Shown: positions 31,058-49,333, counted from the stretch's first letter. The stretch is 64,000 nucleotides of DNA from Schlesneria paludicola DSM 18645 (GCF_000255655.1 NZ_JH636436.1:654985-718984), one strand, 5' to 3'. Made by a program: numbers and translations. Notes: generated by a model from the letters alone, not told the origin.

Positions 31058-31131
31058 GGACGATTAGCTCAGTTGGTTAGAGCGCCACGTTGACATCGTG
31101 GAGGTCGTTGGTTCGAGTCCAATATCGTCCA
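31058..31131 (+). tRNA. tRNA-Val (anticodon GAC)
   Basis: Canonical cloverleaf: GGACGAT/ATCGTCC acceptor, GCTC-AGTTGGTTAG-AGCG D-arm, anticodon loop TTGACAT, T-loop TTCGAGT, discriminator A. Confidence 0.85.
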
Positions 31132-31447
31132 CTTATCACAACTTGATGCTGGCTCGTAATTTACGATTGCCCATCAGGTGAAGAAAGAGGGCCAAAGCGG
31201 GTTGCTACCCTAGTTTTGACCCTGATCGGCCCTGCGGCGTGAAAGTTTGTCGTTCATCGGACCCTGTTGCAGGGTGGCGCATCCGCGAGGAATCTGAAAA
31301 GTCCTCAACCTCTCTCTTCTCCTGCCTGAATTCCGCCAAACAGCAGGCTCGCGTCAAGATTGACGTCAGATCAACTGACAAAACGACGATCCCCGTGGAG
31401 CCGCAGGACTGCCCCACGGGGATTCGTGTTTGAGGAAAATGAAACGT

Positions 31448-32958: not shown

Positions 32959-33030
32959 CGTGCTGTACGGGAGTCGAACCCGTGACTGCCAGATTCTCAG
33001 TCTGGTGCTCTACCTCTGAGCTAACGTCAC
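32959..33030 (-). tRNA. tRNA-like gene, anticodon GAG (leucine-type anticodon) but class-I length; acceptor stem with two internal mismatches (possible pseudogene)
   Basis: Good D-arm (GCTC-AGAGGTA-GAGC), anticodon arm (CCAGA-CTGAGAA-TCTGG) and T-arm (ACGGG-TTCGACT-CCCGT). Acceptor GTGACGT vs ACAGCAC has A·G and C·A mismatches. 5-nt variable region. Confidence 0.35.
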
Positions 33031-33134
33031 CAATGACTTCCGGTCAGAACCCATGTTCGGAACAGTCGGAGCAAAACTCTTTCGAGTGCCCCGACCGCCG
33101 CTGGACGGATGACATCAATGCTTTCAATCCAAAG

Positions 33135-33206
33135 AGACACCGGTGGGAGTCGAACCCACTGGATGCGGCTTTGCAGGCCGCCGCCACGCCGTGTGACATC
33201 AGCGTC
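33135..33206 (-). tRNA. tRNA-Cys (GCA)
   Basis: Anticodon arm GCGGC-CTGCAAA-GCCGC; T-loop TTCGACT; acceptor pairs with G·U wobbles; U73 discriminator as in tRNA-Cys. Confidence 0.55.
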
Positions 33207-33216
33207 ATTCAGTCAG

Positions 33217-33287
33217 TGTCCCTGCCAGGAGTTGAACCTGGTCTACGACCTTCGCAGGGTCGCGTGCATCCACCACACTCCAAGGAC
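33217..33287 (-). tRNA. tRNA-Arg (GCG)
   Basis: Acceptor GTCCTTG/CAGGGAC; D-stem GTGT/GCAC; anticodon loop CTGCGAA; T-loop TTCAACT; discriminator A. Confidence 0.6.
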
Positions 33288-33360
33288 AAAATATTGGTTC
33301 TCTCACTCAACGCGAGAACGACCTTCGATGACAAAACATTTGTGATCGCGCACTAAAAAA

Positions 33361-33431
33361 TACCCCACCGAGGAATCGAACCTCGCCCGACTGCTTCGAA
33401 GGCAGCCATGCATCCTTCACACTCGCAGGGC
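33361..33431 (-). tRNA. tRNA-Arg (TCG)
   Basis: Anticodon loop CTTCGAA; T-arm CGAGG-TTCGATT-CCTCG; acceptor pairs with three G·U wobbles. Confidence 0.5.
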
Positions 33432-33441
33432 ATATTTTCAT

Positions 33442-33513
33442 TCTCCCGACCTGGACTCGAACCAGGGCCTGGACCTTCGGAGAGTCCAATGCATTCCGCT
33501 ACAACATCGGGAC
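33442..33513 (-). tRNA. tRNA-Arg (CCG), G1·G72 mismatch
   Basis: Anticodon arm GGACT-CTCCGAA-GGTCC; T-arm CCTGG-TTCGAGT-CCAGG; first acceptor pair unpaired. Confidence 0.45.
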
Positions 33514-33599
33514 AAACAGGGCCGACGACTGGATTCGCACCAGCATGATTCCGCTTACAAGGCGGACGCCTTTCTCGATCGAGCCACGTCGGCAGTCAG

Positions 33600-33670
33600 C
33601 ACGAGCGCGAGGATTCGAACCCCATCCAGCAGTTTTGGAGGCTGCCCGCTCTCCCAGGAGCATCACTCGT
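33600..33670 (-). tRNA. tRNA-Trp (CCA)
   Basis: Anticodon loop CTCCAAA (as in E. coli tRNA-Trp); acceptor ACGAGTG/CGCTCGT; T-loop TTCGAAT; discriminator G. Confidence 0.5.
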
Positions 33671-33754
33671 GTGTTGCGTCCGCAAGGCGGGCACGAAAAA
33701 CATCGCGCGAACGATGAACCCATTCGTAACCCGTCTCGCGACGCGCATGAAAAA

Positions 33755-34402
33755 TCATTCATCCAATTCCACGGTCCAGTACGCCTCACTGAGGAACTTG
33801 GACCAGCTTCCGATCCGAACATCGTGCTGAGCATAGAGCGGTTTCCAGGTTGGACGTGTCGGCACCTTCTGCAACGGCATGTGTGCTTCAGCGGGTGTAC
33901 GATCGGCTTTGCGCAGGTTGCATTCCAGACACGCCAAAACACAGTTCTCCCAGACGCTGGTCCCACCTCGAGATCGAGGCAACACGTGATCGATCGTTAG
34001 GTCTTCTGTTCTGAGACACTCATGGCGCGGGCTGCGTTCGGCCTGTGAATCCCGATTGTCCACGCCGATGAAGCGGCTATGCCGCCCACAGTACTGACAG
34101 GTGTATCGATCTCGTTTGTAGATGTTTCGGCGACTGAATGTGACCGTGTTTGTGGGAACCCGGTCATATTCGGTCAGGGTGATCACCTCCGGCACGCGAA
34201 TCCGAGACGTCACCGACTGGACGAACAGTTCATCGTCCTGTGGGATTCGCTTCGCCCAATCAGCCCAGGTGTGCTGCTGAAAGTCAGCCGGATCGACGAT
34301 TCGTGCCCGTTCCGCAGCCACCAGCGTCAATGAACGTGCCACCGAGGCCACACCCACCGGCTGCCAGTTCCGGTTCAGTACCAGAGTCTGTCGACTCAAC
34401 AT
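33755..34402 (-). CDS. HNH endonuclease (McrA-like)
   Basis: HNH motif (YTCQYCG...IDHVLPRSRGGTSVWENCVLACLECNLRK). Start set at the internal Met (MLSRQTLVLN) so it does not overlap tRNA-His. Confidence 0.7.
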   Translation of the reverse strand: MLSRQTLVLNRNWQPVGVASVARSLTLVAAERARIVDPADFQQHTWADWAKRIPQDDELFVQSVTSRIRVPEVITLTEYDRVPTNTVTFSRRNIYKRDRYTCQYCGRHSRFIGVDNRDSQAERSPRHECLRTEDLTIDHVLPRSRGGTSVWENCVLACLECNLRKADRTPAEAHMPLQKVPTRPTWKPLYAQHDVRIGSWSKFLSEAYWTVELDE

Positions 34403-34434
34403 CGCCACCACGATTTTCTCTTTCTTATGAAAAG

Positions 34435-34509
34435 GGTGTTCGAACGGGATTGAACCGTCACCTTCGGCTTCACAGGCCGACATGCAGAAACCACTACACC
34501 ACGAACACC
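34435..34509 (-). tRNA. tRNA-His (GTG) with encoded G-1
   Basis: Anticodon arm TCGGC-CTGTGAA-GCCGA; acceptor GTGTTCG/CGAACAC; an extra 5' G (G-1) opposite the C73 discriminator, the hallmark of tRNA-His. Confidence 0.7.
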
Positions 34510-34510
34510 G

Positions 34511-34616
34511 CGCCTTCGCGCGAGAAAGTAGACAGTAGAGAGTTGAAAGTAGAACTGGTTCGCGACGCGTCTTGTCTACTCTCTACTTTCAATCAACTAC
34601 TTTCTCGCGCAGCGTG
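34511..34616. repeat. Palindromic spacer repeat family A, copy 1 (begins 2 nt upstream of the tRNA-His 5' end)
   Basis: cgccttcgcgcgagaaagtag...ctactttctcgcgcagcg with ~14-bp outer inverted repeats; related copies at 36741-36838 and 38998-39110. Confidence 0.55.
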
Positions 34617-34706
34617 CGGAAGGAGCGGGAGTTGAACCCGCAAGGCACATTAAAAATGCTCGACCGGCTTCCAACCGGTTCCCGTCACCATTCGGGTTGC
34701 CCTTCC
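34617..34706 (-). tRNA. tRNA-Ser (GGA), class II
   Basis: Anticodon arm ACCGG-TTGGAAG-CCGGT; long variable arm; T-arm GCGGG-TTCAACT-CCCGC; discriminator G. Confidence 0.55.
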
Positions 34707-34719
34707 GTTTTGACTTCAA

Positions 34720-34791
34720 TACCTCGACCAGGAATCGAACCCAGAACTCCCCGTTAGAAGCGGAGCATGATTTCTATTTCACCATCGAGGC
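34720..34791 (-). tRNA. tRNA-Arg (TCT)
   Basis: Acceptor GCCTCGA/TCGAGGT; anticodon arm CTCCG-CTTCTAA-CGGGG; T-loop TTCGATT; discriminator A. Confidence 0.6.
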
Positions 34792-34801
34792 CAAAAACAA
34801 G

Positions 34802-34889
34802 CGGAAGGCAAGGGATTCGAACCCTCATCTCCCGTGAGGGAGAGTCGCGTTAGCAGTGCGGTCCGGCCAACCGTATCCGGCTACCTTCC
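34802..34889 (-). tRNA. tRNA-Ser (GCT), class II, weak anticodon stem
   Basis: Anticodon loop CTGCTAA; variable arm CTCCC-TCAC-GGGAG; T-arm GAGGG-TTCGAAT-CCCTT; discriminator G; anticodon stem has terminal mismatches. Confidence 0.5.
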
Positions 34890-34927
34890 AATATCGAAAA
34901 GTTGAAATGCGTTTGCGCGGCATGGTC

Positions 34928-35416
34928 TCATCGCCGTTTCACGCCAGGATCGGCGAAATGTTCAATTCTTGTATGCCGTCCCGTTTCAATGTCCGCGAAG
35001 ACGTAATTCTCCGACGCGACCGGTGACCCAGCCATCCTCCGGAAAATGCCGATCTGCCCCAAGTGCAGCATCGCGTCCGCAAACGGACCTTGCAGCAGGT
35101 CCTCTTCATTGACATCGCGAATTGAAGACTCGTTGAGAAGTGACGCGTCAAGCTTTGCTAGGATCTCGAAGTAACCAAACACTTCGGCATTCCATGCCAA
35201 CATAGGCGGCTCAGTGGATTCATAGGGAACCATGAACGAATGCGCGTAGATGAGCACACCTCTCATGTGATTGAGAATCTCGCGTGGGCTTCGAACAGAT
35301 TCTGAGGGCCGGAAGTCTGCGATTTCCGGTGGCATATTCCTGAGCACATTGGCTCCGCGATATGCCAGCGCCGACAGAAAGTGCCGCAGCATGTATCTCT
35401 TCGTCGTTGTTTCCAT
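34928..35416 (-). CDS. DinB/YfiT-like four-helix-bundle protein (hypothetical)
   Basis: Start has GGAGAT 5 nt upstream (METTTKRYMLRHF...). DinB_2-like size and His spacing. Weak assignment. Confidence 0.45.
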   Translation of the reverse strand: METTTKRYMLRHFLSALAYRGANVLRNMPPEIADFRPSESVRSPREILNHMRGVLIYAHSFMVPYESTEPPMLAWNAEVFGYFEILAKLDASLLNESSIRDVNEEDLLQGPFADAMLHLGQIGIFRRMAGSPVASENYVFADIETGRHTRIEHFADPGVKRR

Positions 35417-35589
35417 CGTTATCTCCAATTGTTCCCAACGATTCGCCAAAGCGGCCTGTGAACATACTGAGTCGATTGATCCCCAATAGCGTTGAACCAT
35501 CAGTTCCAGCATGTCAGGTTGATGTCGTACTGATTGATCATGACGTCATGATCAATCGAATAACGAAATCTGAGACCTCAATCCAGAAG

Positions 35590-36254
35590 TTATTCCCAGT
35601 ATTGCTCCCACTTGTCGCCGTAAGATTCCTTGAGGCGTTCTAGGTAGACATAAGTCTTGATCTTGCCCATTTGCAAATCGCGGCCGCTTCGTCCTGATTT
35701 GCAAATGACACCCTCGGTGACACCGTATTTCCCGCAACGAACATCTTCGGCGAATGCCCCGGTGAACTTGCCACGGTGAACTTGCCACGGTACACGATTC
35801 GTGCAATCGGAAGATGTCCGAACCGTTCTACGAATTCGAAAGGCCCGAGTAGGTCTTCGTCACGTGCGACATCAAACATGACCAATCGCTTGACATCATC
35901 AAATTTATGTCGCCCAGCGAATGAATTCGCTCCGAGGTATTCAGCAAATGCAGTGAACCCTTGAACTGTGCTTTCCGAGGCCAATTCACTGAACGTGTGG
36001 GCCAAGGACGCGGACAATGTTTGACGAAAAACTTCCATCGCATCCGATAGCTCAGGGTGATCGTGACGAAACAGTTCCTCGCCGCGATCATCAATATTGA
36101 ACTCATCGCGTCGCGTTCCAAACGCATGCCAGCCGAAGTCCCGATCCCAACGGAAATGCAAATTCGTTCCGTCGTATTTTTCGAAAGCTATGCACTCGGT
36201 GAACGGGAAGTCTTTAGTGTTCGGAATCTTGCGGTAATGTAGCGCGGAGGGCAT
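35590..36254 (-). pseudogene. Rnl2-family ATP-dependent RNA ligase (nucleotidyltransferase domain), apparently frameshifted by a 14-bp tandem duplication at 35761-35788
   Basis: Motif I EKYDGTNLHF (cf. T4 Rnl2 EKIHGTNF), motif III-like AFAEYLG, motif IV LVMFDV and RGKF are in the annotated 204-aa frame (35640-36254). Motif V EGVICKSG appears only in the frame restored by deleting one 14-nt unit, which then runs to TAA at 35590. Confidence 0.5.
35761..35788. repeat. Perfect 14-bp tandem duplication (ggtgaacttgccac x2) inside the RNA-ligase coding region
   Basis: Direct reading of the sequence; the unit length is not a multiple of 3. Confidence 0.9.
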
Positions 36255-36343
36255 GGAGGAATCCTGGCTATCGACCTGATCGCTTTTCCTGTTTGCGTAC
36301 TTGGCCGTCTACTTTCACGGTCGGGTGCCTGCCCTGTCTGCAG

Positions 36344-36428
36344 TGACCAAGGGGAGAGTCGAACTCCCAAGCCCACGAGGGGCACGACGTTCTGAGCGTC
36401 GCGTGTCTACCAGTTGCACCACTTGGCC
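36344..36428 (-). tRNA. tRNA-Leu (CAG), canonical class II
   Basis: 3-bp D-stem with 11-nt loop containing GGTAGA; anticodon arm CGACG-CTCAGAA-CGTCG; 16-nt variable arm (GCCC-CTCGT-GGGC); discriminator A. Confidence 0.7.
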
Positions 36429-36436
36429 ATAATCAG

Positions 36437-36509
36437 TGACCCGTGCGGGATTTGAACCCGCGTTGCCGGCATGAGGGGCCAGCATCCTGAACCGCTAGAA
36501 GAACGGGCC
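36437..36509 (-). tRNA. tRNA-like gene with atypical anticodon loop CCCTCAT (C33; anticodon CTC/Glu-like or CAT-like)
   Basis: Good acceptor (GGCCCGT/ACGGGTC), T-arm GCGGG-TTCAAAT-CCCGC, 6-bp anticodon stem; identity unresolved. Confidence 0.35.
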
Positions 36510-36519
36510 GTTGTTCGAG

Positions 36520-36600
36520 TGCGTCGGGCAGGAGTTGAACCTGCACTGCACGAGGCGGGTGGGTTACAGCCACTTGGGCACGCCAATGCCCAGCCGACGC
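36520..36600 (-). tRNA. tRNA-Tyr (GTA), class II
   Basis: Acceptor GCGTCGG/CCGACGC perfect; D-stem GGGC/GCCC; anticodon loop CTGTAAC; 13-nt variable arm; discriminator A. Confidence 0.65.
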
Positions 36601-36664
36601 ATTCTAATTCGCGCTCACGAATATCTTGCAAACGGGTGTCGTTCGCGCGATGCACGTGAGCGAG

Positions 36665-36739
36665 TAACACGGGTGGGAGTCGAACCCACAGACCACGAAG
36701 GTTTGAGCTTCGCCGCTTTGCCGGATTGCGTACCGTGCC
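36665..36739 (-). tRNA. tRNA with CAA (leucine-type) anticodon, Leu-like D-arm but short variable region (class I length, 75 nt)
   Basis: Anticodon arm CGAAG-CTCAAAC-CTTCG perfect; D-stem CGC/GCG with 11-nt loop; variable region only 6 nt; discriminator A. Confidence 0.5.
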
Positions 36740-36740
36740 G

Positions 36741-36838
36741 CGCCTTCTGCGAGAGAGTAAAAGGTTGAAAGTCGCAAGTAGACAAGAATGGATCCGTCTA
36801 CTCTCAACTCACTACCACCTACTTTCTCGCGCAGCGTA
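36741..36838. repeat. Palindromic spacer repeat family A, copy 2 (fills the spacer between two tRNAs)
   Basis: cgccttctgcgagagagta...ctactttctcgcgcagcgtagc; shares the termini of copy 1. Confidence 0.55.
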
Positions 36839-36839
36839 G

Positions 36840-36913
36840 CGTCCTCGATGGGATTTGAACCCACGTCTCCACCGTGACAGGATGGAGAGCATTCCAGGCT
36901 GCTCCGCGAGGAC
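36840..36913 (-). tRNA. tRNA-Asp (GTC)
   Basis: Acceptor GTCCTCG/CGAGGAC perfect; D-arm GAGC/GCTC; anticodon loop CTGTCAC; discriminator G. Confidence 0.7.
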
Positions 36914-37034
36914 TTTTTCACGCGCGATCAAGATGGGAATGGAAATCAGTGTCGACCGCGCGTTGATAATTAACTCACCTCCCAACGCGCGAGTGACTGG
37001 GTCTGCGCAACCCATCACCGACGCGCACTAAACG

Positions 37035-37108
37035 TAGCTCAGGTGGGAGTCGAACCCACAGCATCCCTGGTTCTAAGCCAAGGTGGTCTGCCGATTGCCT
37101 ACCGAGCC
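37035..37108 (-). tRNA. tRNA with TAG (leucine-type) anticodon and short variable region; weak D-stem
   Basis: Anticodon arm CTTGG-CTTAGAA-CCAGG; T-arm GTGGG-TTCGACT-CCCAC; 6-nt variable region; discriminator A. Confidence 0.45.
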
Positions 37109-37121
37109 ATGTCTTGTTTGA

Positions 37122-37194
37122 TGCCCAGAGCGGGATTTGAACCCGCAAACACTCGATCTTAAGTCGAGTCACTCACACGTTGGCGTACCTGGGC
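37122..37194 (-). tRNA. tRNA with TAA (leucine-type) anticodon and 5-nt variable region (73 nt)
   Basis: Acceptor GCCCAGG/TCTGGGC; 3-bp D-stem plus 10-nt loop; anticodon arm CTCGA-CTTAAGA-TCGAG perfect; T-arm GCGGG-TTCAAAT-CCCGC; discriminator A. Confidence 0.5.
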
Positions 37195-37206
37195 ATGTCA
37201 TCGAAG

Positions 37207-37278
37207 TAATCCCGGATGGACTCGAACCATCGTTACCTGGGTGTAGGCCAGGCGTCGTCGCCGCTGGACCACGGGATC
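37207..37278 (-). tRNA. tRNA-Val (TAC) with C33
   Basis: Anticodon arm CCTGG-CCTACAC-CCAGG (position 33 is C); T-arm GATGG-TTCGAGT-CCATC; discriminator A. Confidence 0.5.
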
Positions 37279-37288
37279 AAATAAAAAA

Positions 37289-37359
37289 TGGACTTATCGG
37301 GAATCGCACCCGAATTTTTGGTTTGCAGGACCGATGTCTTCCTGTTGGACCATGAGCCC
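37289..37359 (-). pseudogene. Degenerate tRNA-like element (non-canonical T-loop TGCGATT, acceptor and anticodon-stem mismatches; loop CCTGCAA)
   Basis: Only partial cloverleaf complementarity. Confidence 0.25.
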
Positions 37360-37379
37360 GATTGTTCGTCGCCAGCGAG

Positions 37380-37465
37380 CGGAAGCCGTGGGGCTCGAAC
37401 CCACAAGCGGGATGTTCCCGCCGCCTGTTTTCAAGACAGGTTCCTCATCCGGCCGGATGACTTCC
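37380..37465 (-). tRNA. tRNA-Ser (TGA), class II
   Basis: Acceptor GGAAGTC/GGCTTCC; anticodon arm CCTGT-CTTGAAA-ACAGG; variable arm GCGGG-AACAT-CCCGC; discriminator G. Confidence 0.6.
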
Positions 37466-37477
37466 GTAATCTGTAAA

Positions 37478-37551
37478 TTGTGGGAGTTGGAATCGAACCA
37501 ACGCCTCCGGGTTCAGAGCCCAGCATCGCCACCAGCAGCGACTATCCCGCA
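37478..37551 (-). tRNA. tRNA-Gln (CTG)
   Basis: U1-A72 first pair as in tRNA-Gln; D-stem GTCG/CGAT; anticodon arm CTGGG-CTCTGAA-CCCGG; one C3·A70 mismatch. Confidence 0.55.
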
Positions 37552-37627
37552 ATGAATTTGATTGAGACAAGACACTCGTACTTTCCAAGGGTTCGTGTGC
37601 TACCGTGGTTCTCGGTAAACTGATGGA

Positions 37628-38101
37628 ATGGATGTGAACTGTGCCAAGCAGATGTTCTTTGCCTACGACGGGTCGCGTTTCTACATGTCGCGAAACGGAG
37701 ATGAGGACAAATACGCTCAGATGCAGGTCCCAGCATCGATCGAAGCACAATGGTTGGATGAGTTGACATCTCGCAAACTCGATCAACTCATTTCTTCGGC
37801 AAATTGGATGGTTGTACATTTTCTCCTTCATCATTCCGACTTCCGCCAATTGGACCGACTCGCCGCAGCTGCGCCATTGGGAACTCTTCAGGAGAAATGT
37901 GCATTTCTTGAGGAACTCCTAAAATATGTACAGCAATGTTGTGGAGCATATGAGTCCAGTCGTCTCGCTAACGTTTGCGATTCAATTCTTCGAGATGCAT
38001 TCACGTTGCGAAAGCGGGCTCGGGCGAAGAATTCCCTTGCTCGAATTGAACGCCTCGTCGAGAACGCCGAAAAGTTTGTCGCGACGTTGCTCTCAGATTG
38101 A
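37628..38101 (+). CDS. Hypothetical protein (157 aa) in a lower-GC segment inside the tRNA array
   Basis: Intact ORF on the opposite strand to the array with no overlap with tRNAs; no recognisable motif. Confidence 0.4.
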   Translation: MDVNCAKQMFFAYDGSRFYMSRNGDEDKYAQMQVPASIEAQWLDELTSRKLDQLISSANWMVVHFLLHHSDFRQLDRLAAAAPLGTLQEKCAFLEELLKYVQQCCGAYESSRLANVCDSILRDAFTLRKRARAKNSLARIERLVENAEKFVATLLSD

Positions 38102-38104
38102 TGA

Positions 38105-38178
38105 ATTGCGGGGGCAGGAATCGAACCTGCGCCTCCGGGGTCAAAGCCCAGCATCGCTGCCAACAGCGACTACCCCGC
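38105..38178 (-). tRNA. tRNA-Gln (TTG)
   Basis: Acceptor TGCGGGG/CCCCGCA perfect with U1-A72; anticodon arm CTGGG-CTTTGAC-CCCGG; T-arm GCAGG-TTCGATT-CCTGC. Confidence 0.7.
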
Positions 38179-38185
38179 AATGGAA

Positions 38186-38257
38186 GAGGGACGGGTGGGA
38201 CTCGAACCCACGCGCTGGTGCTTAACAAACACCTGCTCTGCCGCTGAGCTACCGACC
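38186..38257 (-). tRNA. tRNA-Asn (GTT), T4·T69 acceptor mismatch
   Basis: D-arm GCTC-AGCGGCA-GAGC; anticodon arm GGTGT-TTGTTAA-GCACC; T-arm GTGGG-TTCGAGT-CCCAC. Confidence 0.55.
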
Positions 38258-38264
38258 CAATCGA

Positions 38265-38336
38265 GAGTGCCCTGCGGGAATCGAACCCGCCTGTCCAACT
38301 TGGAAGGCTGGCACCTCTGCCGATCGGTCAAGGGCA
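38265..38336 (-). tRNA. tRNA-Gly (TCC)
   Basis: Acceptor GTGCCCT/AGGGCAC perfect; anticodon arm CCAGC-CTTCCAA-GTTGG; U73 discriminator. Confidence 0.65.
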
Positions 38337-38359
38337 CATATTCTTTCCTCAAGTCGGAA

Positions 38360-38491
38360 GCCGTGGGACTCGAACCCACAATCCCGATTCTCGGGACACC
38401 TGCTTTCGAGCGTTGTACATCTATCGCGGCTTCAGCCTTCATCCTCGCTTTCGCTCGGCCGCAGGCCTTGCTTCCAGCCGGATGACTTCCA
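38360..38491 (-). tRNA. tRNA-Ser(CGA)-like gene with a ~50-nt insertion between anticodon-stem position 31 and the loop (intron-like or disrupted)
   Basis: Ends match tRNA-Ser(TGA) at 37380-37465 (GGAAGTCATCC... / ...GTGGGTTCGAGTCCCACGGCTTCCG). Stem CCTGC/GCAGG encloses the 50-nt insert followed by a canonical loop CTCGAAA. Variable arm TCCCG-AGAAT-CGGGA intact. Confidence 0.3.
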
Positions 38492-38634
38492 TTCGTGTTA
38501 AGGCTGCGGCGACAGGAATCGAACCATCAACCGAAGCCGCTGGCCGAATAGGTCAGTTGAAGGCGAAGGGCGATAGTCTTTCAAATCCGAGTCGCCTGCC
38601 CGTACCAACACGGACTCCACCGCAATTTATATCA

Positions 38635-38708
38635 GTCAGCGCGGTCGGATTTGAACCGACGATCTCGTGGTCCCAAGCCACGCGGATTTCCATGCTTTCC
38701 CACACGCT
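38635..38708 (-). tRNA. tRNA-Pro (TGG)
   Basis: C1-G72 first pair and A73, typical of tRNA-Pro; anticodon arm CGTGG-CTTGGGA-CCACG; T-arm GTCGG-TTCAAAT-CCGAC. Confidence 0.7.
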
Positions 38709-38768
38709 GACAATCGTTCATCGCGGATCGACCTTCGTTGTCATCAAGGATCGTCCACGCGAACAAAA

Positions 38769-38839
38769 AAGCACCCAGCGGGAGTTGAACCCGCACCTCC
38801 GCCTTGGCGAGACGGTACGCTGCCGCTACGTCATGGGTG
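38769..38839 (-). tRNA. tRNA-Gly (GCC) with C33
   Basis: Acceptor GCACCCA/TGGGTGC perfect; D-stem ACGT/GCGT; anticodon loop TCGCCAA; U73. Confidence 0.5.
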
Positions 38840-38923
38840 CATGCATTCCTGGCCGAATTGTTAAAGACCTATTCGCAACGCGCGATTGGCCAAGTTTGTG
38901 AACTCGCTTCATCGCGCATGAAA

Positions 38924-38995
38924 AAGCACCGGGTGGGACTCGAACCCACGTTGCCGTATTACGGGTGCGGTGTCTTGGCCGCTAAACGACCAGTG
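38924..38995 (-). tRNA. tRNA-Thr (CGT) with C33
   Basis: Acceptor GCACTGG/CCGGTGC; D-stem GTTT/AGAC; anticodon arm CCGCA-CCCGTAA-TACGG (one mismatch); T-arm GTGGG-TTCGAGT-CCCAC. Confidence 0.45.
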
Positions 38996-38997
38996 CA

Positions 38998-39110
38998 GCG
39001 CCTTCGGCGAGAAAGTAGAGAGTGGAAAGTCGTGAGTGGACAAGAACCGATCCGTCTACTTTCCACTCTCTACGGACTATTCTCTCTGTCCCGGCACGCC
39101 GGGACAGAGA
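38998..39110. repeat. Palindromic spacer repeat family A, copy 3, plus a 13-bp hairpin (ctctctgtcccgg/ccgggacagagag) that overlaps the 3' end of tRNA-Lys(CTT)
   Basis: cgccttcggcgagaaagtagagagtggaaagt...actttccactctctac has a perfect 16-bp inverted repeat. It starts 3 nt upstream of the 5' end of the preceding tRNA. Confidence 0.55.
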
Positions 39111-39179
39111 GACCAGACGGACTTGAACCGTCACTTGCTCGGGTAAGAACCGAGTGTGCTGCCACTAACACCTTGATCC
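39107..39179 (-). tRNA. tRNA-Lys (CTT)
   Basis: D-stem GTGT/GCAC; anticodon arm CTCGG-TTCTTAC-CCGAG perfect; T-arm GACGG-TTCAAGT-CCGTC; acceptor with two G·U wobbles. Confidence 0.6.
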
Positions 39180-39196
39180 CGTAATCCTTCGTTCAG

Positions 39197-39268
39197 TTAG
39201 GCCTGGGCGGAGTTGAACCGTCGTCTGGCCCTTATAAGGAGCCTGCTCTCATCGTTGAGCTACAGGCC
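39197..39268 (-). tRNA. tRNA-Ile (TAT)
   Basis: Canonical D-arm GCTC-AACGATGA-GAGC; anticodon arm GGCTC-CTTATAA-GGGCC; A73. Confidence 0.55.
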
Positions 39269-39277
39269 CAGTAATCA

Positions 39278-39349
39278 ATGGGGCCGGAGGGATTCGAACC
39301 CCCACCGGGCAGATTAAAAGTCTGCTGTGCTGCAGTTACACCACGACCC
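39278..39349 (-). tRNA. tRNA-Lys (TTT)
   Basis: Acceptor GGGGTCG/CGGCCCC; anticodon arm GCAGA-CTTTTAA-TCTGC perfect; T-loop TTCGAAT; A73. Confidence 0.65.
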
Positions 39350-39410
39350 CGGATGAGGACGTGGTTCCATTTGTTCGTGAGGTCTCGATCCATAATCTGC
39401 ACCTTGTTCA

Positions 39411-39481
39411 ATCGCTTGGAGTGGAGTTGAACCACCGCTGTCGCCGTATCAGAACGACGTGCTTCCGTTACACCACCAAGC
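39411..39481 (-). tRNA. tRNA-Ile (GAT)
   Basis: Acceptor CGCTTGG/CCAAGCG perfect; anticodon loop CTGATAC; T-arm GGTGG-TTCAACT-CCACT; A73. Confidence 0.6.
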
Positions 39482-39623
39482 GGAGTCGGGATGGTCAGAA
39501 TCGAACTGACTGTGTTCAACTACCGCGGCCCGGCCTTCATCCTCGCTATTCGCTCGGCGTCATTCCTTACTTCTCAGCTACCAGCCCGGAAATGACAGAA
39601 CTTTGACTTCGTCAAAACGAAGA

Positions 39624-39659
39624 AGCCCGGTGTCCTTTGCGTGACACCGGGCTCTTTTG
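39624..39659. terminator. GC-rich hairpin (11-bp stem agcccggtgtc/gacaccgggct) followed by a T-run; reads as a terminator in both orientations
   Basis: Perfect inverted repeat with cttttg on the plus strand and tcttcgttttg on the minus strand; lies at the upstream (minus-sense) edge of the tRNA array. Confidence 0.4.
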
Positions 39660-40153
39660 AAAAAGCTTGCGGAGGCTTAGGGCCGATGTCACGAGCGCAG
39701 GGGATACGAGGATCTTTCGCTTCGCAAACCTGTATTCCCCGGAATACTGGCAAGATGTTGCCGAATCTGGGTATGCACGGGTTGCGTACCGAAGAGGTTC
39801 GCCGGTATGGCAAACCGCCTCGTATCGCTCTGTCTGCAATCGGACATCAGCTGTGAAAACATCATAATCCGCAAGACCTTTGAAATTGTTTCTTCCTGAA
39901 ACTGCCGGTCAGAGCGATGAACGCCATCGCTGTTGCATTCTTAGATGCGCGAGCGCAGCAATAAGTTCGCGGGAAACTTCAAAAATCAATACGAATCTTG
40001 GGTGAGGGTGCGAGCGAATGGGAGGCTTCAAATCTGAACTGAAACGGCGGCGAATTCGTCTCGAGCGTCCCCAATATCTCGTTGCCTCAGCAGGTTGCGA
40101 AGGAAGACGTAGACAAGCCAGCCAAAACAGACGGGCTGCTTCACAAGGAACTC

Positions 40154-41161
40154 TTAAGCCCAGATGCCAATCGGCTGACCTTTTTTGTAGTTCAAGAACG
40201 CTTGCAGCGAAACACGCGGACCGCCCTTAAAAGGGATCACAGCGTGGGGCCTGCCTGTGTTGATGATGACGGCATCACCACTTTTGAGCTCGATTCGAAT
40301 GGGGGGCGGAAGAAGCTTTTGGAAACGTAGCTGCAATTCTTCGTTCTGATAATTCGATTCAAGGAAAAAGTGTTTGACGGAATGCCAATGACCGATTGCT
40401 TCATGCATCGTGGTGATTTGAGGATTCCACAGATAGAGATGACCACCAATTTCGGGTTGCTTCAGGTACACATTCAACGAGAACTGGCCCGAATTGCTAC
40501 TGAGCAGTGGTGAACTATCCACATGGCACCCCAATGACGTTTCCGTAACGGTCTCAGTATTGTCGTACATCACCCGCACAAGCCCGGGTGACATTTTACA
40601 GCCCTTATAACGGGCAACAGTCATGCCATCATCCCATAGCTCATCGACCATGATGCGAAATTTGTCATAGGGAGAAACGTACGGCGCCGCCATGCTTCGT
40701 AGTTTCTCGGATGTTGAGATGGCGTTTTGAAAGTAGCGATGCCAGCTTTCGTCGCTCTTATTGGCCATACTGAATGGCTCGCCAAAGACATTGACATCAC
40801 TGGGTTTGAACTCGGTTTTCAGATCGTAGATATTCCAGTTCTCAAGTTTTTCTTTCAGGATGTTTGTCGTCATCCGTTCGCAGACTTCAGCCGTGCAGAA
40901 CGCGGGAAGGTGAATTGCCAGAATGCGATTAGTAAATAAATCTCGCAGCAATTCCGATGACAGCCGGTCCGTTTTGACAATTCCGGACCCATCCGAGGGC
41001 ATCGTTTTCCCGGCAGTCAGTTGTTCCATCGGCCAGAGCAAGCACTTCATGATAGGGGTGCGAAGGATTCGTCCGATCAATGGAATGGTGCTAGCTGGTC
41101 GCGGAGGAACTTTCATGATGCTCATCGTCGATCGATTCTTTCGGGCTTCAGTCCGCGCCAC
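40154..41161 (-). CDS. 2OG-Fe(II) oxygenase-like protein (hypothetical) in an AT-rich segment
   Basis: HxD...H...RxS-like arrangement (LGCHVDSS, GRPHAVIPF, RVSLQAF). Codon usage and GC differ from the flanks. Start uncertain. Confidence 0.45.
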   Translation of the reverse strand: MARTEARKNRSTMSIMKVPPRPASTIPLIGRILRTPIMKCLLWPMEQLTAGKTMPSDGSGIVKTDRLSSELLRDLFTNRILAIHLPAFCTAEVCERMTTNILKEKLENWNIYDLKTEFKPSDVNVFGEPFSMANKSDESWHRYFQNAISTSEKLRSMAAPYVSPYDKFRIMVDELWDDGMTVARYKGCKMSPGLVRVMYDNTETVTETSLGCHVDSSPLLSSNSGQFSLNVYLKQPEIGGHLYLWNPQITTMHEAIGHWHSVKHFFLESNYQNEELQLRFQKLLPPPIRIELKSGDAVIINTGRPHAVIPFKGGPRVSLQAFLNYKKGQPIGIWA

Positions 41162-41796: not shown

Positions 41797-42489
41797 CTAG
41801 ACAACTACCAGGCGCTCCGAGCGTTCGGCGCTTCTTAATTCCAGAAATTCAAGCCATTGATTCATTCCCAAACCCGTCTTCGCCGAAAGTTCGAGAATCC
41901 TCATGCCGGGTCGAACAGCCTGAACGCTCGCGTAAGCCGCTTCTCGATCGAACTCTGTCACGGTTGCGAGTTCGATTTTGGTGATGATCGCCACATCGGC
42001 GGTGTTGAAGATGGTGGGATACTTCCGCGGTTTGTCTTCCCCCTCAGTCACGGAAAACAGGACGAGCCGCATTTCTTCGCCCAAGTCGTATGTTGCAGGG
42101 CAGACCAGATTGCCGACGTTTTCAATAAATAGAAAGTCGAGTTCGTCCAGGTTCCAGCCCACAAGTGCGTCGCTCACCATCTTGGCTTCGAGATGGCAAA
42201 CGGAACCGGTGATGATCTGCCGAATCGGGACACCCGCGCGTTCCAGTCGCCGGGCGTCATTCTCGGTTGCCAGATCACCCACGAGTGCGGCACAGCGATA
42301 CCGTTCGCGCAGCATTGTCAGGGTTCGTTCGAGAAAGAGCGTCTTTCCCGTGCCAGGGCTTGAAACCAGACTGACCACGAAGACTCCGTTGTTGTGAAAA
42401 CGCTGCCTGAGTAGTCGCGCATCGTTGTCGTTGGCCTTAAGGACCTGGGTTCTTACCTCGACCATTCGAGTTGTCGTCGGGAGGCTCAT
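41797..42489 (-). CDS. hypB: Hydrogenase nickel-incorporation GTPase HypB
   Basis: P-loop GTGKT plus CH motif of HypB. Start set at the ATG overlapping the hypA stop (ATGA). The longer ORF N-terminus overlaps hypA. Confidence 0.85.
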   Translation of the reverse strand: MSLPTTTRMVEVRTQVLKANDNDARLLRQRFHNNGVFVVSLVSSPGTGKTLFLERTLTMLRERYRCAALVGDLATENDARRLERAGVPIRQIITGSVCHLEAKMVSDALVGWNLDELDFLFIENVGNLVCPATYDLGEEMRLVLFSVTEGEDKPRKYPTIFNTADVAIITKIELATVTEFDREAAYASVQAVRPGMRILELSAKTGLGMNQWLEFLELRSAERSERLVVV

Positions 42490-42833
42490 GACTCGATCTC
42501 CATTGCAACGATTTCCAGTTCGCGCCCACAGACGACATCTCCGCATGGTGTCCCGCATTCGGGGCAGCACAAGTCCTGGAAGCAGGGCAATTCGCGTTCG
42601 GTGTCGCAGACATGACATCGTACGCGCAGGGGGACTTCTTCGACGACCAATTCGACCTTTGAGAATGGCGACATTTCTCGGGCCAAGTCGAACGCGGATA
42701 TCAGCGCCTGCTTGATTACTCCCGACAGGGGGCCCAGTTTCAAGTAGATCGATTTGATCTCCGCGCCGCCGCGGCGGTCCGATTCTTCACCGGCAATATC
42801 GAGAATACTCATCGCCAGAGACAGTTCGTGCAT
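42486..42833 (-). CDS. hypA: Hydrogenase maturation Ni-metallochaperone HypA
   Basis: MHELSLAMSILDI... N-terminus and CxxC-x12-CxxC zinc finger. Confidence 0.85.
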   Translation of the reverse strand: MHELSLAMSILDIAGEESDRRGGAEIKSIYLKLGPLSGVIKQALISAFDLAREMSPFSKVELVVEEVPLRVRCHVCDTERELPCFQDLCCPECGTPCGDVVCGRELEIVAMEIES

Positions 42834-43008
42834 TCGAGTATCGTCCTATGACATTTCGCTGATACGGATATAGCGCGCCAAACCAGGAAACTCTGCGAAC
42901 ATGCAAACCAGAACCCAGAGGAGAATGAAAACTCCGAGTACAATAGCAAAGATGTCTTCGGCGATGGCCATGATGACTTTCATCGTGCGTACCCCTTTTC
43001 ACATTGTG

Positions 43009-43148
43009 TGGTAACAGTTCACAGGCTGGGAACTGGCTCATTTTCCCGCGGTATAAGGAAGGCTTAGCCCAGTCGATGCACTGTGGATTCCAATTGAACC
43101 GGGAAATTGTGCTTGTCCCGCTCACTTTGGGCTGTGAACGGTGACCAT
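43009..43148. repeat. MITE-like element copy 2 (inverted; TIRs ggtaacagttcacag / ctgtgaacggtgacc)
   Basis: Covers the last ~28 codons and the stop of the hydrogenase maturation protease gene. Confidence 0.6.
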
Positions 43149-43696
43149 TGTGTGATCAGATCGTTTGTTGGCGGCACGTTATCCGTGGTCTCGTCGGTGA
43201 CAACTGGCATTCGTGCATAGACTTCGTTCGTGAGCAGCGCAATTTGATGGATTGCACCTTCGATTGCCGTTTGGACGGTTGGAGTTAATCCCATCTTGCC
43301 TTCGTGTTCATCGCCAAGGTCTTCCGGCTCGCACCCGACCAGCAGAATTCGACCTGGGGTTCCGCCGAATGCCCGTACCATCCGCAATACATTCAGCGGG
43401 TGCATGCTGTGCGCATCGAGAATCGAATCGGCTTCGTCAATATCATGCAGATCGAGTTCCATCGTGTAGACCGTGCCGGGAGTGCCACCTTGTGGCGTGG
43501 CGTCGACCAGGATTGTCGTCTCAATTCCATCCATCAGTGCGTATGCCAGATCCATGCCTCGAATGCCGTAATCGATCACACTGACGCCGCTTGGCCATGT
43601 TTGACGTTGTAGACGTTGGACAACTTCGCAGCCGAAGGCGTCGTCTCCACGGAAGATGTTTCCAATTCCCGCGATCAACAGGTGTCGCAACATCAT
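43064..43696 (-). CDS. [NiFe]-hydrogenase maturation endopeptidase (HybD/HupD family)
   Basis: GIGNIFRGDDAFG N-terminus and His/Asp metal ligands; the C-terminal ~28 aa are encoded by the MITE-like repeat. Confidence 0.85.
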   Translation of the reverse strand: MMLRHLLIAGIGNIFRGDDAFGCEVVQRLQRQTWPSGVSVIDYGIRGMDLAYALMDGIETTILVDATPQGGTPGTVYTMELDLHDIDEADSILDAHSMHPLNVLRMVRAFGGTPGRILLVGCEPEDLGDEHEGKMGLTPTVQTAIEGAIHQIALLTNEVYARMPVVTDETTDNVPPTNDLITQWSPFTAQSERDKHNFPVQLESTVHRLG

Positions 43697-44076
43697 GGGC
43701 TCTCCTGTTGATTGTCGGGCAAACGCATCGGTTCAACTTCCTCTGTCGAAAAGAAGAATCGGTGGCCAGGTTTCCTCAAGAATCCCAAATCGCGACCGGG
43801 GTCATCGTCCAGGACGACTGCCAGATGAATCTGACCTTCGAAGTCCTGTTCAATGGCTTCGATCGTGGCCACCTTTTTCTGAAACGCGAGGTCCATGATG
43901 TCTCCTCGTTTTTTTGGCCAAAGGCGGACCTTGTCGCTCACCCTCAAATCGACTCCAAATACGCGAACACTTTCAAGTCGCGTTTCGACATCCAGTTCGG
44001 GCCAGGGAAAGTCCTCCATCATCGTTTTAAGACTCACTTTCTTTCGTTGCGTCGAATTCCTCTTCGAACCAATCAA
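43693..44076 (-). CDS. Hypothetical protein in the hydrogenase locus
   Basis: 127-aa ORF, translationally coupled (overlapping stop/start) with its neighbours; no family recognised. Confidence 0.4.
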   Translation of the reverse strand: MIGSKRNSTQRKKVSLKTMMEDFPWPELDVETRLESVRVFGVDLRVSDKVRLWPKKRGDIMDLAFQKKVATIEAIEQDFEGQIHLAVVLDDDPGRDLGFLRKPGHRFFFSTEEVEPMRLPDNQQESP

Positions 44077-47308: not shown

Positions 47309-47418
47309 GTCTGGTTGCCCCTTTTCATGAAACGGGAACGAAGCGACAAATCAACCGTTCTGGTCGAAAGAAGCGTGGATGACGCCGTGTCGTCAACGGC
47401 ACCCGATCGCGTTGTGGG

Positions 47419-49224: not shown

Positions 49225-49333
49225 GAACGGACTCCTGTGAAGCAAGCAGAACTTGATTGGAGATTTCAGTGCATCGCGAAATGTTTGGACCACGATCGTG
49301 GTCTGTCATGTTTCGAAGAGGAACGTTTTGCAG

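Follow-up and report, generated by a model that had tools for sequence, protein, structure and literature searches.

The closest described counterparts of the locus reported here are the cyanobacterial L-arrays, tRNA arrays with a conserved HNH gene, a co-regulated RNA ligase, and induction by translational stress, the last demonstrated in Anabaena only (PMC8421152). Tran et al. set the threshold for a tRNA array unit at 20 or more tRNA genes with 2 or more per kb, counted the Planctomycetes among the phyla in which arrays are rare, and regarded those of the Planctomycetes as isolated insertions that scarcely resemble one another (PMC4758250).

The array of Schlesneria paludicola resembles the cyanobacterial L-arrays, such as the trn operon of Anabaena sp. 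PCC 7120, in being long, co-oriented, and supernumerary. Both have linked HNH genes that are homologous to each other, an RNA ligase is functionally associated with the cyanobacterial array, and the unusual tRNAs Ile-TAT and Glu-CTC are common to the two. In contrast to the cyanobacterial arrangement, in which the HNH gene lies upstream of the array, the gene lies inside the array at the junction of tRNA-His and tRNA-Trp, and the ligase is an array-embedded, ATP-dependent enzyme of Rnl type rather than RtcB. The tRNA order and the leader also differ, and the S. paludicola array is chromosomal and is followed by a Band_7 gene. Unlike the isolated insertions described by Tran et al., many planctomycete arrays have a common tRNA order, leader, HNH position, and Band_7 neighbor.

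A second parallel is the tRNA cluster of phage T4, with its nuclease gene among tRNA genes and its ATP-dependent RNA ligase tied to tRNA upkeep. SegB of the T4 cluster is a GIY-YIG homing endonuclease, not an HNH enzyme, and T4 Rnl1 has an additional C-terminal domain and acts with Pnkp in tRNA repair. The S. paludicola array, unlike T4, has neither Pnkp nor phage genes and belongs to a bacterial chromosome.

The tRNA array and its planctomycete relatives

The window, which is the whole stretch of 64,000 nucleotides that was analyzed, comes from S. paludicola DSM 18645, and its HNH and DinB-like products each match a deposited protein of this species at 100% identity. Its features, with positions counted from the first letter of the window, are as follows.

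31058 to 31132, plus strand: separate tRNA-Val(GAC), 71 bits
31448 to 32644, minus strand: Band_7/SPFH gene (PF01145, E value 1.9e-27), conserved 3' neighbor directly downstream of the array
32959 to 39482, minus strand: tRNA array of 32 genes with four embedded ORFs (ARAGORN, Rfam, and relaxed ARAGORN)
33599 to 33670, minus strand: tRNA-Trp(CCA), conserved neighbor downstream of the HNH gene (ARAGORN)
33755 to 34411, minus strand: HNH endonuclease gene, 218 amino acids (PF01844, PHROG 16726, and deposited protein)
34434 to 34508, minus strand: tRNA-His(GTG), conserved neighbor upstream of the HNH gene (ARAGORN and Rfam)
34928 to 35416, minus strand: DinB-superfamily-like gene, 162 amino acids (identical deposited protein; relatives match PF12867)
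35590 to 36254, minus strand: ATP-dependent RNA ligase gene, a frameshifted pseudogene, 216 amino acids if repaired (motifs, fold, and homologues)
35763 to 35790, minus strand: tandem duplication of the 14-bp CCGTGGCAAGTTCA (read from the sequence and located by script)
37628 to 38101, plus strand: ORF4, 157 amino acids, an all-helical conserved family (126 relatives and an AF2 model)
38353 to 38453, minus strand: degenerate Ser-like pseudo-tRNA (repeat families matching tRNA-Ser-TGA; relaxed ARAGORN)
39613 to 39700, minus strand: conserved leader bordering the array on its 5' side (comparison with upstream regions of related arrays)

All four ORFs of an earlier note on this DNA were confirmed. 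ARAGORN called 30 array tRNAs, all on the same strand as the three minus-strand ORFs that the note had placed in the gaps of the array, and Rfam and relaxed ARAGORN added Arg-TCG (33361 to 33431) and Ala-TGC (37289 to 37359). With 32 co-oriented genes in 6.5 kb (4.9 tRNAs per kb), the locus qualifies as a tRNA array unit, for which 20 or more co-oriented genes and 2 or more per kb are required. Eighteen amino acids are represented, and Met, Phe, and Glu-TTC are missing. The Ser-like pseudo-tRNA, to which relaxed ARAGORN assigns a four-base anticodon, occupies the place of Ser-CGA in other arrays. In this array and four related ones, Rfam found tRNAs only and no other RNA family. Compensatory changes were seen in 155 of 509 predicted tRNA pairs across arrays, with noncanonical cells at only 3.6%, and the array tRNAs are thus under structural selection. 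Their scores range from 30 to 63 bits, versus 71 for the nonarray tRNA-Val, and their identity between genera is only 56 to 95%.

The genome of S. paludicola is reported to contain 77 tRNAs (PMC10923784), whereas its congener Schlesneria sp. DSM 10557 has 51 (PMC11812302); a further count used for comparison is 54 (PMC10923784, PMC11812302). By these literature counts, the array accounts for the excess of about 26 tRNAs over the congener and is therefore supernumerary, an L-array as in cyanobacteria.

Six related loci and others have the same tRNA order. These include arrays of 31 and 26 tRNAs (L006, from Thalassoglobus, and L007), one of 17 in Bremerella (L039), and metagenome loci of up to 41 (L129); L049 is a further example. 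Judged by gene order, the S. paludicola array belongs to a planctomycete family of up to 41 tRNAs. The leader consists of an invariant GTGAC box, a spacer of about 40 nt, a hairpin (GCCCGGTGTCAC-loop-GACACCGGGC), and a T-run, and it also precedes the first tRNA in seven related arrays. At the other end, Band_7 orthologues with 70 to 83% identity follow the array in six loci. In Schlesneria sp. DSM 10557, the locus is a collinear remnant consisting of Phe, Ser, Ser, Ser, HNH, Cys, and Band_7.

The tRNA-Val at 31058 to 31132 scores higher than any other tRNA in the window, lies behind the Band_7 gene on the strand opposite to the array, and is only 56 to 60% identical to the array Val-GAC of three related loci. 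It is not an array member, nor, with no repeat of it between 28 and 44 kb, an attachment site.

Protein-coding genes within the array

The HNH gene begins 22 nt past tRNA-His and ends 84 nt before tRNA-Trp. The earlier note had labeled it correctly and set its start at 34483, which falls within tRNA-His; because the identical deposited protein has 218 amino acids, the gene extends from 33755 to 34411. The product matches Pfam PF01844 (E value, 3.7e-13; 49.8 bits against a cutoff of 21.4) and PHROG 16726 (E value, 1.7e-34). Its DH...N...N motif is intact, with DHVLPRSRGG...WEN...CNLRK aligning with IscB and the Nostoc HNH protein, and two CxxC pairs (CQYC and CLEC) flank the motif as in the subfamily; there is also a lineage-specific insertion of about 21 amino acids. 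The family assignment is solid, and nuclease activity is predicted. A PADLOC scan for defense systems gave only generic HNH-motif matches (PtuB and Cas9) for this protein and none for the other ORFs. The Nostoc HNH gene, which immediately precedes an array of 24 tRNAs on plasmid pNsp_d, encodes a protein with 31% full-length identity to that of the window.

Full-length HNH orthologues (52 to 80% identical) with intact motifs were found in more than 80 loci. Among the 61 metagenome loci with enough upstream sequence, 23 have tRNA-His no more than 300 nt upstream of the gene; tRNA-His precedes it in two further loci as well, and tRNA-Trp follows about 40 to 65 nt after the gene in most array-embedded orthologues. 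At least three tRNAs are present at 36 of 80 orthologue loci, and about half of the orthologues are away from tRNAs. The candidate view of a core gene that merely happens to lie beside tRNA-His was dropped after the metagenome scan, in which the gene was array embedded in about half of the loci.

The ORF at 35640 to 36254 that had been taken as an RNA ligase turned out to cover only the first portion of a gene interrupted by a frameshift, and the label itself is borne out by motifs and predicted fold. Two copies of CCGTGGCAAGTTCA, at 35790 to 35777 and 35776 to 35763, stand in tandem. When one copy was deleted in silico, the reading frame gave a 216-amino-acid protein ending in WEQYWE, the same end as in all homologues, and the ligase gene thus spans 36254 to 35590. 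Motif I (K26xDGxN) and motif III (E105) precede the frameshift. Motifs IV (EGVxCK) and V (KxK) follow it out of frame, downstream of the duplication, and the copy in the window is therefore a pseudogene. All four nucleotidyltransferase motifs are invariant among 22 relatives, including K26-Y-D-G-T-N of motif I.

The match to PF09414 is weak (19 bits versus a cutoff of 27). The AF2 model of the repaired protein has a pLDDT of 93, and its best PDB fold matches are T4 Rnl2, NgrRnl (Rnl5), TbREL1, T4 Rnl1, and Rnl3 (E values, 4e-7 to 1e-4), with TM-scores, normalized to the targets, of 0.35 to 0.5. The assignment as an RNA ligase is weak by sequence and solid by motifs and modeled fold. The protein resembles T4 Rnl2, Naegleria NgrRnl, and trypanosome REL1 in its nucleotidyltransferase fold (Foldseek E values, 4e-7 to 1e-5) and in motifs I, III, IV, and V. 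It differs from them in its identity of 11 to 18%, its length of about 215 amino acids, and the addition of only a C-terminal helix to the domain. The repaired ligase is the nucleotidyltransferase domain only, without the C-terminal domain of Rnl2 or the N-terminal OB domain of Rnl5.

In at least five other genomes, the ligase gene adjoins tRNA-Leu(GAG), just 3' of it. The gene begins 15 to 29 nt past the preceding tRNA in five related arrays and 83 nt past it in a sixth (L018), and in four it ends 3 to 7 nt before the next tRNA. Array-linked ligases cluster together in a neighbor-joining tree. Relatives with 40 to 47% identity occur in tRNA-rich regions of viral contigs of 130 to 359 kb, and further relatives occur in huge-phage genomes of 385 to 642 kb, including XacN1. 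Most relatives, in Gemmataceae, cyanobacteria, and Chloroflexi, are away from tRNAs; as the same holds for many HNH orthologues, neither protein is strictly array dependent. Neighbor clustering of 88 loci of ligase relatives outside arrays gave no RNA-repair genes as partners, only lineage-specific ones (HtrA protease, short-chain dehydrogenase, and EF-hand proteins). A literature search found neither an Rnl-type ligase inside tRNA arrays nor a characterized member of this ligase clade.

Arrays are known with HNH only, with ligase only, and with both, and of those with an HNH gene, most lack the ligase. Since the Thalassoglobus ligase carries an in-frame TGA and the S. paludicola copy is broken as well, the ligase is evidently dispensable. 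An ATP-dependent ligase requires 3'-OH and 5'-phosphate ends, and the array itself encodes neither a kinase nor a phosphatase for end healing.

HNH and ligase genes recur in tRNA arrays, as the earlier note had expected of HNH nucleases and RNA-repair enzymes. The DinB-like gene and ORF4 do not, and no tRNAs were found near their relatives elsewhere, so that both are local insertions. The DinB-like gene sits where other arrays have Val-GAC, Thr-GGT, Ala, and Ala. Its earlier label has indirect support, through relatives: Pfam and NCBIfam gave no match for the gene product, whereas 6 of 24 relatives match PF12867 DinB_2 (best E value, 3.4e-6) and 5 of 24 match MST. The homologues are 150 to 165 amino acids long, H12, H50, D114, and H118 are invariant in the 24 relatives, and no PDB relative was found by sequence or by family profile.

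ORF4 separates two tRNA-Gln genes, 85% identical to each other, that adjoin in other arrays, and it was absent from the other arrays compared. It is a real conserved family, with a model pLDDT of 97.7. Pfam, NCBIfam, PHROGs, and PADLOC gave no match, and Foldseek against the PDB gave nothing below an E value of 0.04 and generic helical repeats only. The plus-strand ORF had been reported in an AT-rich gap, which is only mildly so (GC content, 0.489 versus 0.553 for the window).

Mobility and alternative readings

The array and its ORFs might be carried by an integrative element or prophage, perhaps a degraded one, with an integrase gene that is now gone or is located beyond the window; we consider this unlikely. 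The viral and huge-phage ligase relatives point toward it, as do the resemblance of the HNH protein to phage HNH families, the unequal tRNA counts within the genus (77 versus 51; PMC10923784, PMC11812302), and the horizontal spread of L-arrays described in the literature (PMC8421152). A similar array with leader occurs in IMG/VR, on a contig that has two serine-recombinase ORFs 4.6 to 7.6 kb upstream, but a tRNA-dense contig in IMG/VR is a weak sign of a virus. The ligase gene (GC content, 0.507) and ORF4 are the sole parts below flank GC, and their GC3 values (0.52 and 0.50, respectively) are below those of host genes (0.59 to 0.70). Against this, the GC content of the array as a whole (0.547) equals that of its flanks (0.544 to 0.556), and the GC3 of the HNH gene is host-like.

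The earlier note had seen no integrase, and our scan of 34 ORFs lying from 12 to 59 kb of the window likewise turned up no gene for an integrase, recombinase, or transposase and no phage gene. The note had also proposed a search beyond the window for att repeats matching tRNA-Val; between 28 and 44 kb, the direct repeats of 18 nt or more were tRNA-derived and spacer repeats only, and none brackets the array or includes tRNA-Val. Nothing within the window marks the array as a phage or mobile island.

The earlier note had held that ORFs lacking homologues, together with a syntenic array, would speak for a core feature. The ORFs have homologues, and the array and Band_7 are conserved across genera, but the outer genes are not. 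In an all-against-all flank comparison, nothing was conserved beyond leader, array, and Band_7, even between two Schlesneria species; in the window, the flanking genes are glnA, polysaccharide synthesis genes, a peroxiredoxin gene, and a [NiFe]-hydrogenase operon. The idea that the array is syntenic and hence vertically inherited is weakened by these flanks, and past mobility of the unit may have occurred. On the other side, the Band_7 junction is kept across genera, and the collinear HNH-Band_7 remnant of the congener fits decay in place, not a clean empty site. A long residence of the array in the chromosome seems probable.

Somewhat less likely still is that the HNH gene, and perhaps the ligase gene, are selfish invaders of the array without a cellular role, the HNH enzyme acting like SegB by cutting array-less alleles and copying in itself and neighboring tRNAs. 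HNH is a classic homing-endonuclease fold, and this reading was proposed earlier for the cyanobacterial HNH gene all8564 (PMC8421152); the existence of all three combinations of HNH and ligase in arrays, and ligase decay in two genomes, would also agree with it. Yet the full-length conservation of HNH with intact motifs in so many loci, its recurrent His-Trp junction, and its persistence outside arrays form a pattern of purifying selection, not that of a cycling homing element, and its host-like GC3 likewise disagrees.

That the array is a plain housekeeping tRNA operon, a core feature with ordinary neighbors, is very improbable: the conserved order and Band_7 adjacency, the retained cloverleafs, and the lack of mobility genes between 12 and 59 kb would suit it, but not the array-borne tRNA excess over the congener (PMC10923784, PMC11812302), the missing Met, Phe, and Glu-TTC, the low scores and divergence of the array tRNAs, the pseudogene among them, or the loss of most of the array in the congener.

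A putative spare-tRNA and sealing module

Our preferred reading, held with reasonable though by no means full confidence, is that the ORFs lie in a supernumerary L-array common to many Planctomycetes, in which HNH and ligase genes are optional and position-fixed components, and that the array serves as a spare-tRNA and sealing module. The conserved unit consists of the leader, with its GTGAC box and terminator-like hairpin, followed by about 30 to 40 co-oriented tRNA genes in fixed order and then Band_7. Its optional parts are the HNH gene between tRNA-His and tRNA-Trp and the minimal ATP-dependent RNA ligase gene just past tRNA-Leu(GAG). As the HNH and ligase genes lie only 3 to 30 nt from adjoining tRNAs, they are most likely co-transcribed with the array. 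Their spacing and orientation also suggest tRNA-punctuated processing, in which the HNH and ligase mRNAs would be released as RNase P and RNase Z excise the flanking tRNAs.

Upon damage to translation or to the pool of housekeeping tRNAs, such a module could supply spare tRNAs, plus a sealing activity where the ligase is intact. This stress or repair role is suggested by analogy with the cyanobacterial L-array, for which it was shown. In S. paludicola, the ligase is inactivated by the 14-bp duplication, through which motifs IV and V are lost; one Ser tRNA has decayed, several array members have been lost or moved, and the DinB-like gene and ORF4 are later insertions.

Long supernumerary tRNA arrays were already known, with function studied in one cyanobacterium only. 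The present locus reveals a widespread planctomycete array family of fixed architecture, with a conserved leader, an HNH gene at one junction, and, at another, a minimal RNA ligase gene in some lineages. A caution for annotation is that arrays dense in tRNAs and carrying HNH genes can pass for prophages. The intact ligase orthologues and the candidate regulatory leader are testable material.

A bolder version, which we put forward as speculation with the odds against it, is that Planctomycetes possess a regulated spare-tRNA operon in which the leader hairpin silences about 30 to 40 back-up tRNAs. HNH and ligase would be expressed as tRNA-punctuated mRNAs, and tRNAs hit by tRNA-cleaving toxins or phage-defense nucleases would be replaced or resealed; the ligase clade, shared with huge phages, might then be a new dedicated tRNA-repair family. 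That spare tRNAs keep company with a nuclease and a ligase repeatedly, in two phyla as well as in huge phages, suggests a general module for tRNA back-up or repair, which would bear on tRNA-targeting toxins and phage defense.

The array and its planctomycete relatives

ARAGORN predicted 30 tRNA genes on the minus strand between 32959 and 39482 of the window, and two more (Arg-TCG, 33361-33431, and Ala-TGC, 37289-37359) were added by Rfam and a relaxed ARAGORN run, giving a total of 32 tRNAs at 4.9 per kb. The array tRNAs cover 18 amino acids, with neither Met nor Phe represented. Four ORFs, three on the minus strand and one (ORF4) on the plus strand, lie in its larger gaps, all found where the earlier note had claimed them. 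Two window ORFs have 100% identity to deposited proteins of Schlesneria paludicola, which assigns the window to this planctomycete.

Features of the window
33216-33287, tRNA Arg-GCG, an anticodon unusual for bacteria
33755-34411, minus strand, HNH gene
34928-35416, minus strand, DinB-like gene (162 amino acids as deposited)
37628-38101, plus strand, ORF4, a real family with 126 relatives
38353-38453, minus strand, degenerate Ser-like tRNA with an insertion, in a 297-nt gap where related arrays have Asn and Ser-CGA
38505-38580, fragment resembling a tRNA 3' end, a possible second remnant in the same 297-nt gap
39196-39270, tRNA Ile-TAT (Ile-UAU anticodon), unusual for bacteria
39613-39700, minus strand, leader
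40154-41161, minus strand, gene directly upstream of the array, without a Pfam match but matching the PADLOC "2OG" CRISPR-associated profile (E value, 5e-9); probably a 2-oxoglutarate/Fe(II) oxygenase
41797-55644, [NiFe]-hydrogenase operon with HypB, HycI, HypD, HypE-like, and HypF genes, adjoining the array in an ordinary chromosomal context

On sequence comparison, the array belongs to a family of arrays shared by planctomycetes. The closest relatives of its RNA ligase sit within arrays of nearly identical tRNA order, and the sampled arrays contain the HNH gene only, the ligase gene only, or both, the last being the case in the window alone.

Comparison loci
L001, leader at 8722-8830
L003, leader at 6205-6325
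L006, Thalassoglobus, 31 tRNAs found
L007 and L008, GCA_021651095, 26 and 12 tRNAs found
L018, Schlesneria MAG, 3 tRNAs found
L039, Bremerella cremea, 17 tRNAs found
L049, Planctomycetaceae MAG, 12 tRNAs found
L129, leader at 775-885
L155, leader at 815-920
L192, 94-kb IMG/VR contig, leader at 2782-2875; serine-recombinase ORFs (Resolvase and Recombinase domains) at 7446-8246 and 9713-10456

The order of L129, with the ligase slot inserted from L006 and L007, was taken as canonical: leader, Phe, Glu, Pro, Pro, Ile-GAT, Lys, Ile-TAT, Lys, Thr, Gly, Pro, Asn, Ser, Gly, Gln, Gln, Ser, Val, Leu, Leu, Asp, Leu, Tyr, Glu-CTC, Leu-CAG, Leu-GAG, (ligase), Val-GAC, Thr, Ala, Ala, Ser-GCT, Arg-TCT, (Ser-GGA), His, (HNH), Trp, Thr, Arg (three or four genes), Cys, and then a Band_7 gene. 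The window array keeps to this order except for some losses and moves: it has no Phe or Glu-TTC, the DinB-like gene occupies the usual place of Val, Thr, Ala, and Ala, and the Gln pair is split by ORF4. The Ser-like tRNA and the fragment in the 297-nt gap are a sign of decay inside the array. Ile-TAT and Arg-GCG are both kept across planctomycete arrays, and Ile-TAT is found in a Nostoc plasmid array as well.

Both edges of the array recur. A Band_7 orthologue (70 to 83% identity) lies 3' of the array in L001, L006, L129, L130, L168, and L170, and the leader at the 5' edge is conserved in eight loci (the window, L001, L003, L006, L007, L129, L155, and L192) although all upstream genes differ. 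The leader, which has no Rfam match, consists of an invariant GTGAC box, a spacer of ~40 nt, a hairpin (39654-39623 in the window) with a stem that is almost invariant (GCCCGGTGTCAC-loop-GACACCGGGC), and a T-run; it may be an attenuator or operator of the array.

A long hairpin repeat (~95 nt; folding z-scores, -4.4 to -5.7) fills three inter-tRNA spacers (His/Ser at 34520-34615, Leu/Asp at 36749-36837, and Thr/Lys at 39007-39095), and no further occurrence of its core motif was found in the window or among the 107 loci compared. In GCA_021651095, the array with the ligase has a Ro60/TROVE gene (RNA quality control; L007 13644-15254) ~2 kb downstream.

Protein-coding genes within the array

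The HNH endonuclease label is supported by Pfam HNH (E value, 3.7e-13) and PHROG 16726 (E value, 1.7e-34), but the start at ATG 34483 falls within tRNA-His (34434-34508). The deposited protein has 218 amino acids, and the gene is therefore 33755-34411, starting 22 nt past tRNA-His. The protein retains both CxxC pairs and an intact catalytic motif, and an insertion of ~21 residues is common to the closest 218-amino-acid relatives. A metagenome scan with this protein as the query yielded 80 orthologous loci, with at least 3 tRNAs in 36, at least 10 in 15, and 41 in one. Upstream sequence was long enough in 61 loci; 29 of these have a co-oriented tRNA within 300 nt upstream of HNH, and this tRNA is His in 23 of the 29; Trp usually comes next after HNH. 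More distant relatives (43 to 48% identity) belong to a second array type (L177, L179, L184, L186, and L189), in which they occupy the 3' end and the tRNA order is different, ending in Arg-CCT, Arg-CCG, and Arg-ACG; tRNA-SeC(TCA) is present in L177 and L186.

The ORF at 35640-36254, which the earlier note took for an RNA ligase gene, scores 19 bits with PF09414, below the cutoff of 27, and contains motif I (KYDGTN). Its homologues of ~214 amino acids align only to the first 76 to 79% of the ORF, because the 14-bp unit CCGTGGCAAGTTCA is present as a tandem duplicate within the gene (35790-35777 and 35776-35763). Deletion of one copy in silico gives a 216-amino-acid protein that ends in WEQYWE, as in the relatives, and has motifs IV (EGVxCK) and V (KxK), both invariant. 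Since this repair restores a full protein, the gene spans 36254-35590 and, as read from this assembly, is a pseudogene. The predicted model of the repaired protein (pLDDT, 93) resembles the nucleotidyltransferase domains of T4 Rnl2, Naegleria Rnl5, REL1, T4 Rnl1, and archaeal Rnl3 at 11 to 18% identity and is without any extra domain. Thus, motifs and predicted fold uphold the ligase label, and the ORF as first drawn is the frameshifted front part of the gene.

In related arrays, the ligase start lies 15 to 29 nt past the preceding tRNA (L006, L007, L008, L039, and L049; 83 nt in L018), and its end lies 3 to 7 nt ahead of the next (L007, L008, L018, and L049). The reading frame of the Thalassoglobus ligase (L006 10001-10651) meets an in-frame TGA at codon 185, shortly ahead of motif V, and continues past it to a normal WEQHWE end abutting tRNA-Val; either this gene is decaying, as the second such copy, or the stop codon is read through. 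No publication on this ligase clade emerged from a literature search.

The DinB-like protein has no direct match in Pfam, NCBIfam, or PDB. Among 24 aligned relatives, 6 match DinB_2 and 5 the related MST family, and H12, H50, D114, and H118 are invariant, so that the DinB label is plausible at the superfamily level only. ORF4 is predicted to be all-helical (pLDDT, 97.7), with no family match (Pfam, NCBIfam, PHROG, or PADLOC) and no fold match. HNH nucleases and RNA-repair enzymes had been proposed as array companions, and HNH and the ligase do recur within arrays; relatives of the DinB-like gene and of ORF4 were never near tRNAs among the loci examined.

Mobility of the array unit

The array unit itself may have moved in the past. 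No pair of genomes, two Schlesneria species included, shares anything outside the leader-array-Band_7 unit, and GC3 is low for the ligase and ORF4, but the GC content of the array is not deviant. L192 carries the same array and leader, with two serine-recombinase ORFs 4.6 to 7.6 kb upstream, the only mobility-type genes observed in the vicinity of arrays of this family. The minimal ligase family is also found in huge phages of 130 to 640 kb (L090, L091, L094, L096, and L097; LR756511, LR756502, LR745206, and AP018399), and ligase relatives lie in tRNA-rich regions of such phages. On IMG/VR contigs, the ligase lies between two co-oriented tRNA clusters, 3 to 8 kb off on either side; in XacN1, there is no tRNA within 8 kb of the relative.

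A phage- or ICE-type element in the window, possibly degraded, had been proposed, with the 3' end of tRNA-Val as a candidate att site. The 34 ORFs between 12 and 59 kb covered by a profile scan belong to an ordinary chromosomal repertoire (polysaccharide synthesis, glnA, ApbE, peroxiredoxin, a HisA-like gene, and the hydrogenase operon with its Hyp maturation genes), with no recombinase or phage protein among them, and a search for an att-like repeat at 28 to 44 kb found none. The tRNA-Val(GAC) at 31058 is a separate gene, only 56 to 60% identical to the array Val-GAC of other genomes. We conclude that the window is without a recognizable integrative element or prophage.

Spare tRNAs and a proposed role

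Judged from their sequences, the array tRNAs are functional but spare. Across 24 tRNA species, each common to at least 3 arrays, compensatory double changes occur in 155 of 509 predicted pairs, a biased count in that these alignments also served for the structure prediction, and noncanonical cells make up only 3.6% of the pair alignments. Identity between genera is only 56 to 95%, and Rfam scores are 30 to 63 bits, versus 71 for the nonarray tRNA-Val. S. paludicola is reported to have 77 tRNA genes, versus 51 in Schlesneria sp. DSM 10557 and 54 in Planctoellipticum (PMC10923784, PMC11812302), and the HNH-Band_7 locus of DSM 10557 is a collinear array remnant (leader, Phe, Ser-TGA, Ser-GCT, Ser-GGA, HNH, an acetyltransferase gene, Cys, Gly, and Band_7). 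On this basis, the array counts as supernumerary, the property by which L-arrays are defined (PMC8421152).

Among known systems, the cyanobacterial L-array comes closest. The HNH of the window is a full-length homologue (31% identity) of a Nostoc plasmid HNH encoded directly upstream of a 24-tRNA array. In contrast, HNH is internal at a fixed position in the planctomycete family, the embedded ligase is of the Rnl type rather than RtcB, the tRNA order and leader differ, and Band_7 is the neighbor. Array surveys have noted rare arrays in Planctomycetes, and this family and its companions were not described (PMC4758250, PMC8421152).

Tight spacing and shared orientation suggest that HNH and the ligase are transcribed together with the tRNAs; their mRNAs would be released as the adjacent tRNAs are processed by RNase P and RNase Z. 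A strong role for the ligase in the module has several facts against it: the gene is dead in the window and has the in-frame TGA in Thalassoglobus, most HNH-bearing arrays are without it, and no end-healing enzyme is encoded near the array. A Pnkp repair enzyme is encoded elsewhere in the S. paludicola genome (PMC3675462). The array of Anabaena is induced by translational stress along with its HNH gene and an RNA ligase, and survival is aided (PMC8421152). By analogy, the planctomycete module, with the terminator-like leader as a candidate control point, would supply backup tRNAs, plus a sealing activity in genomes with an intact ligase.
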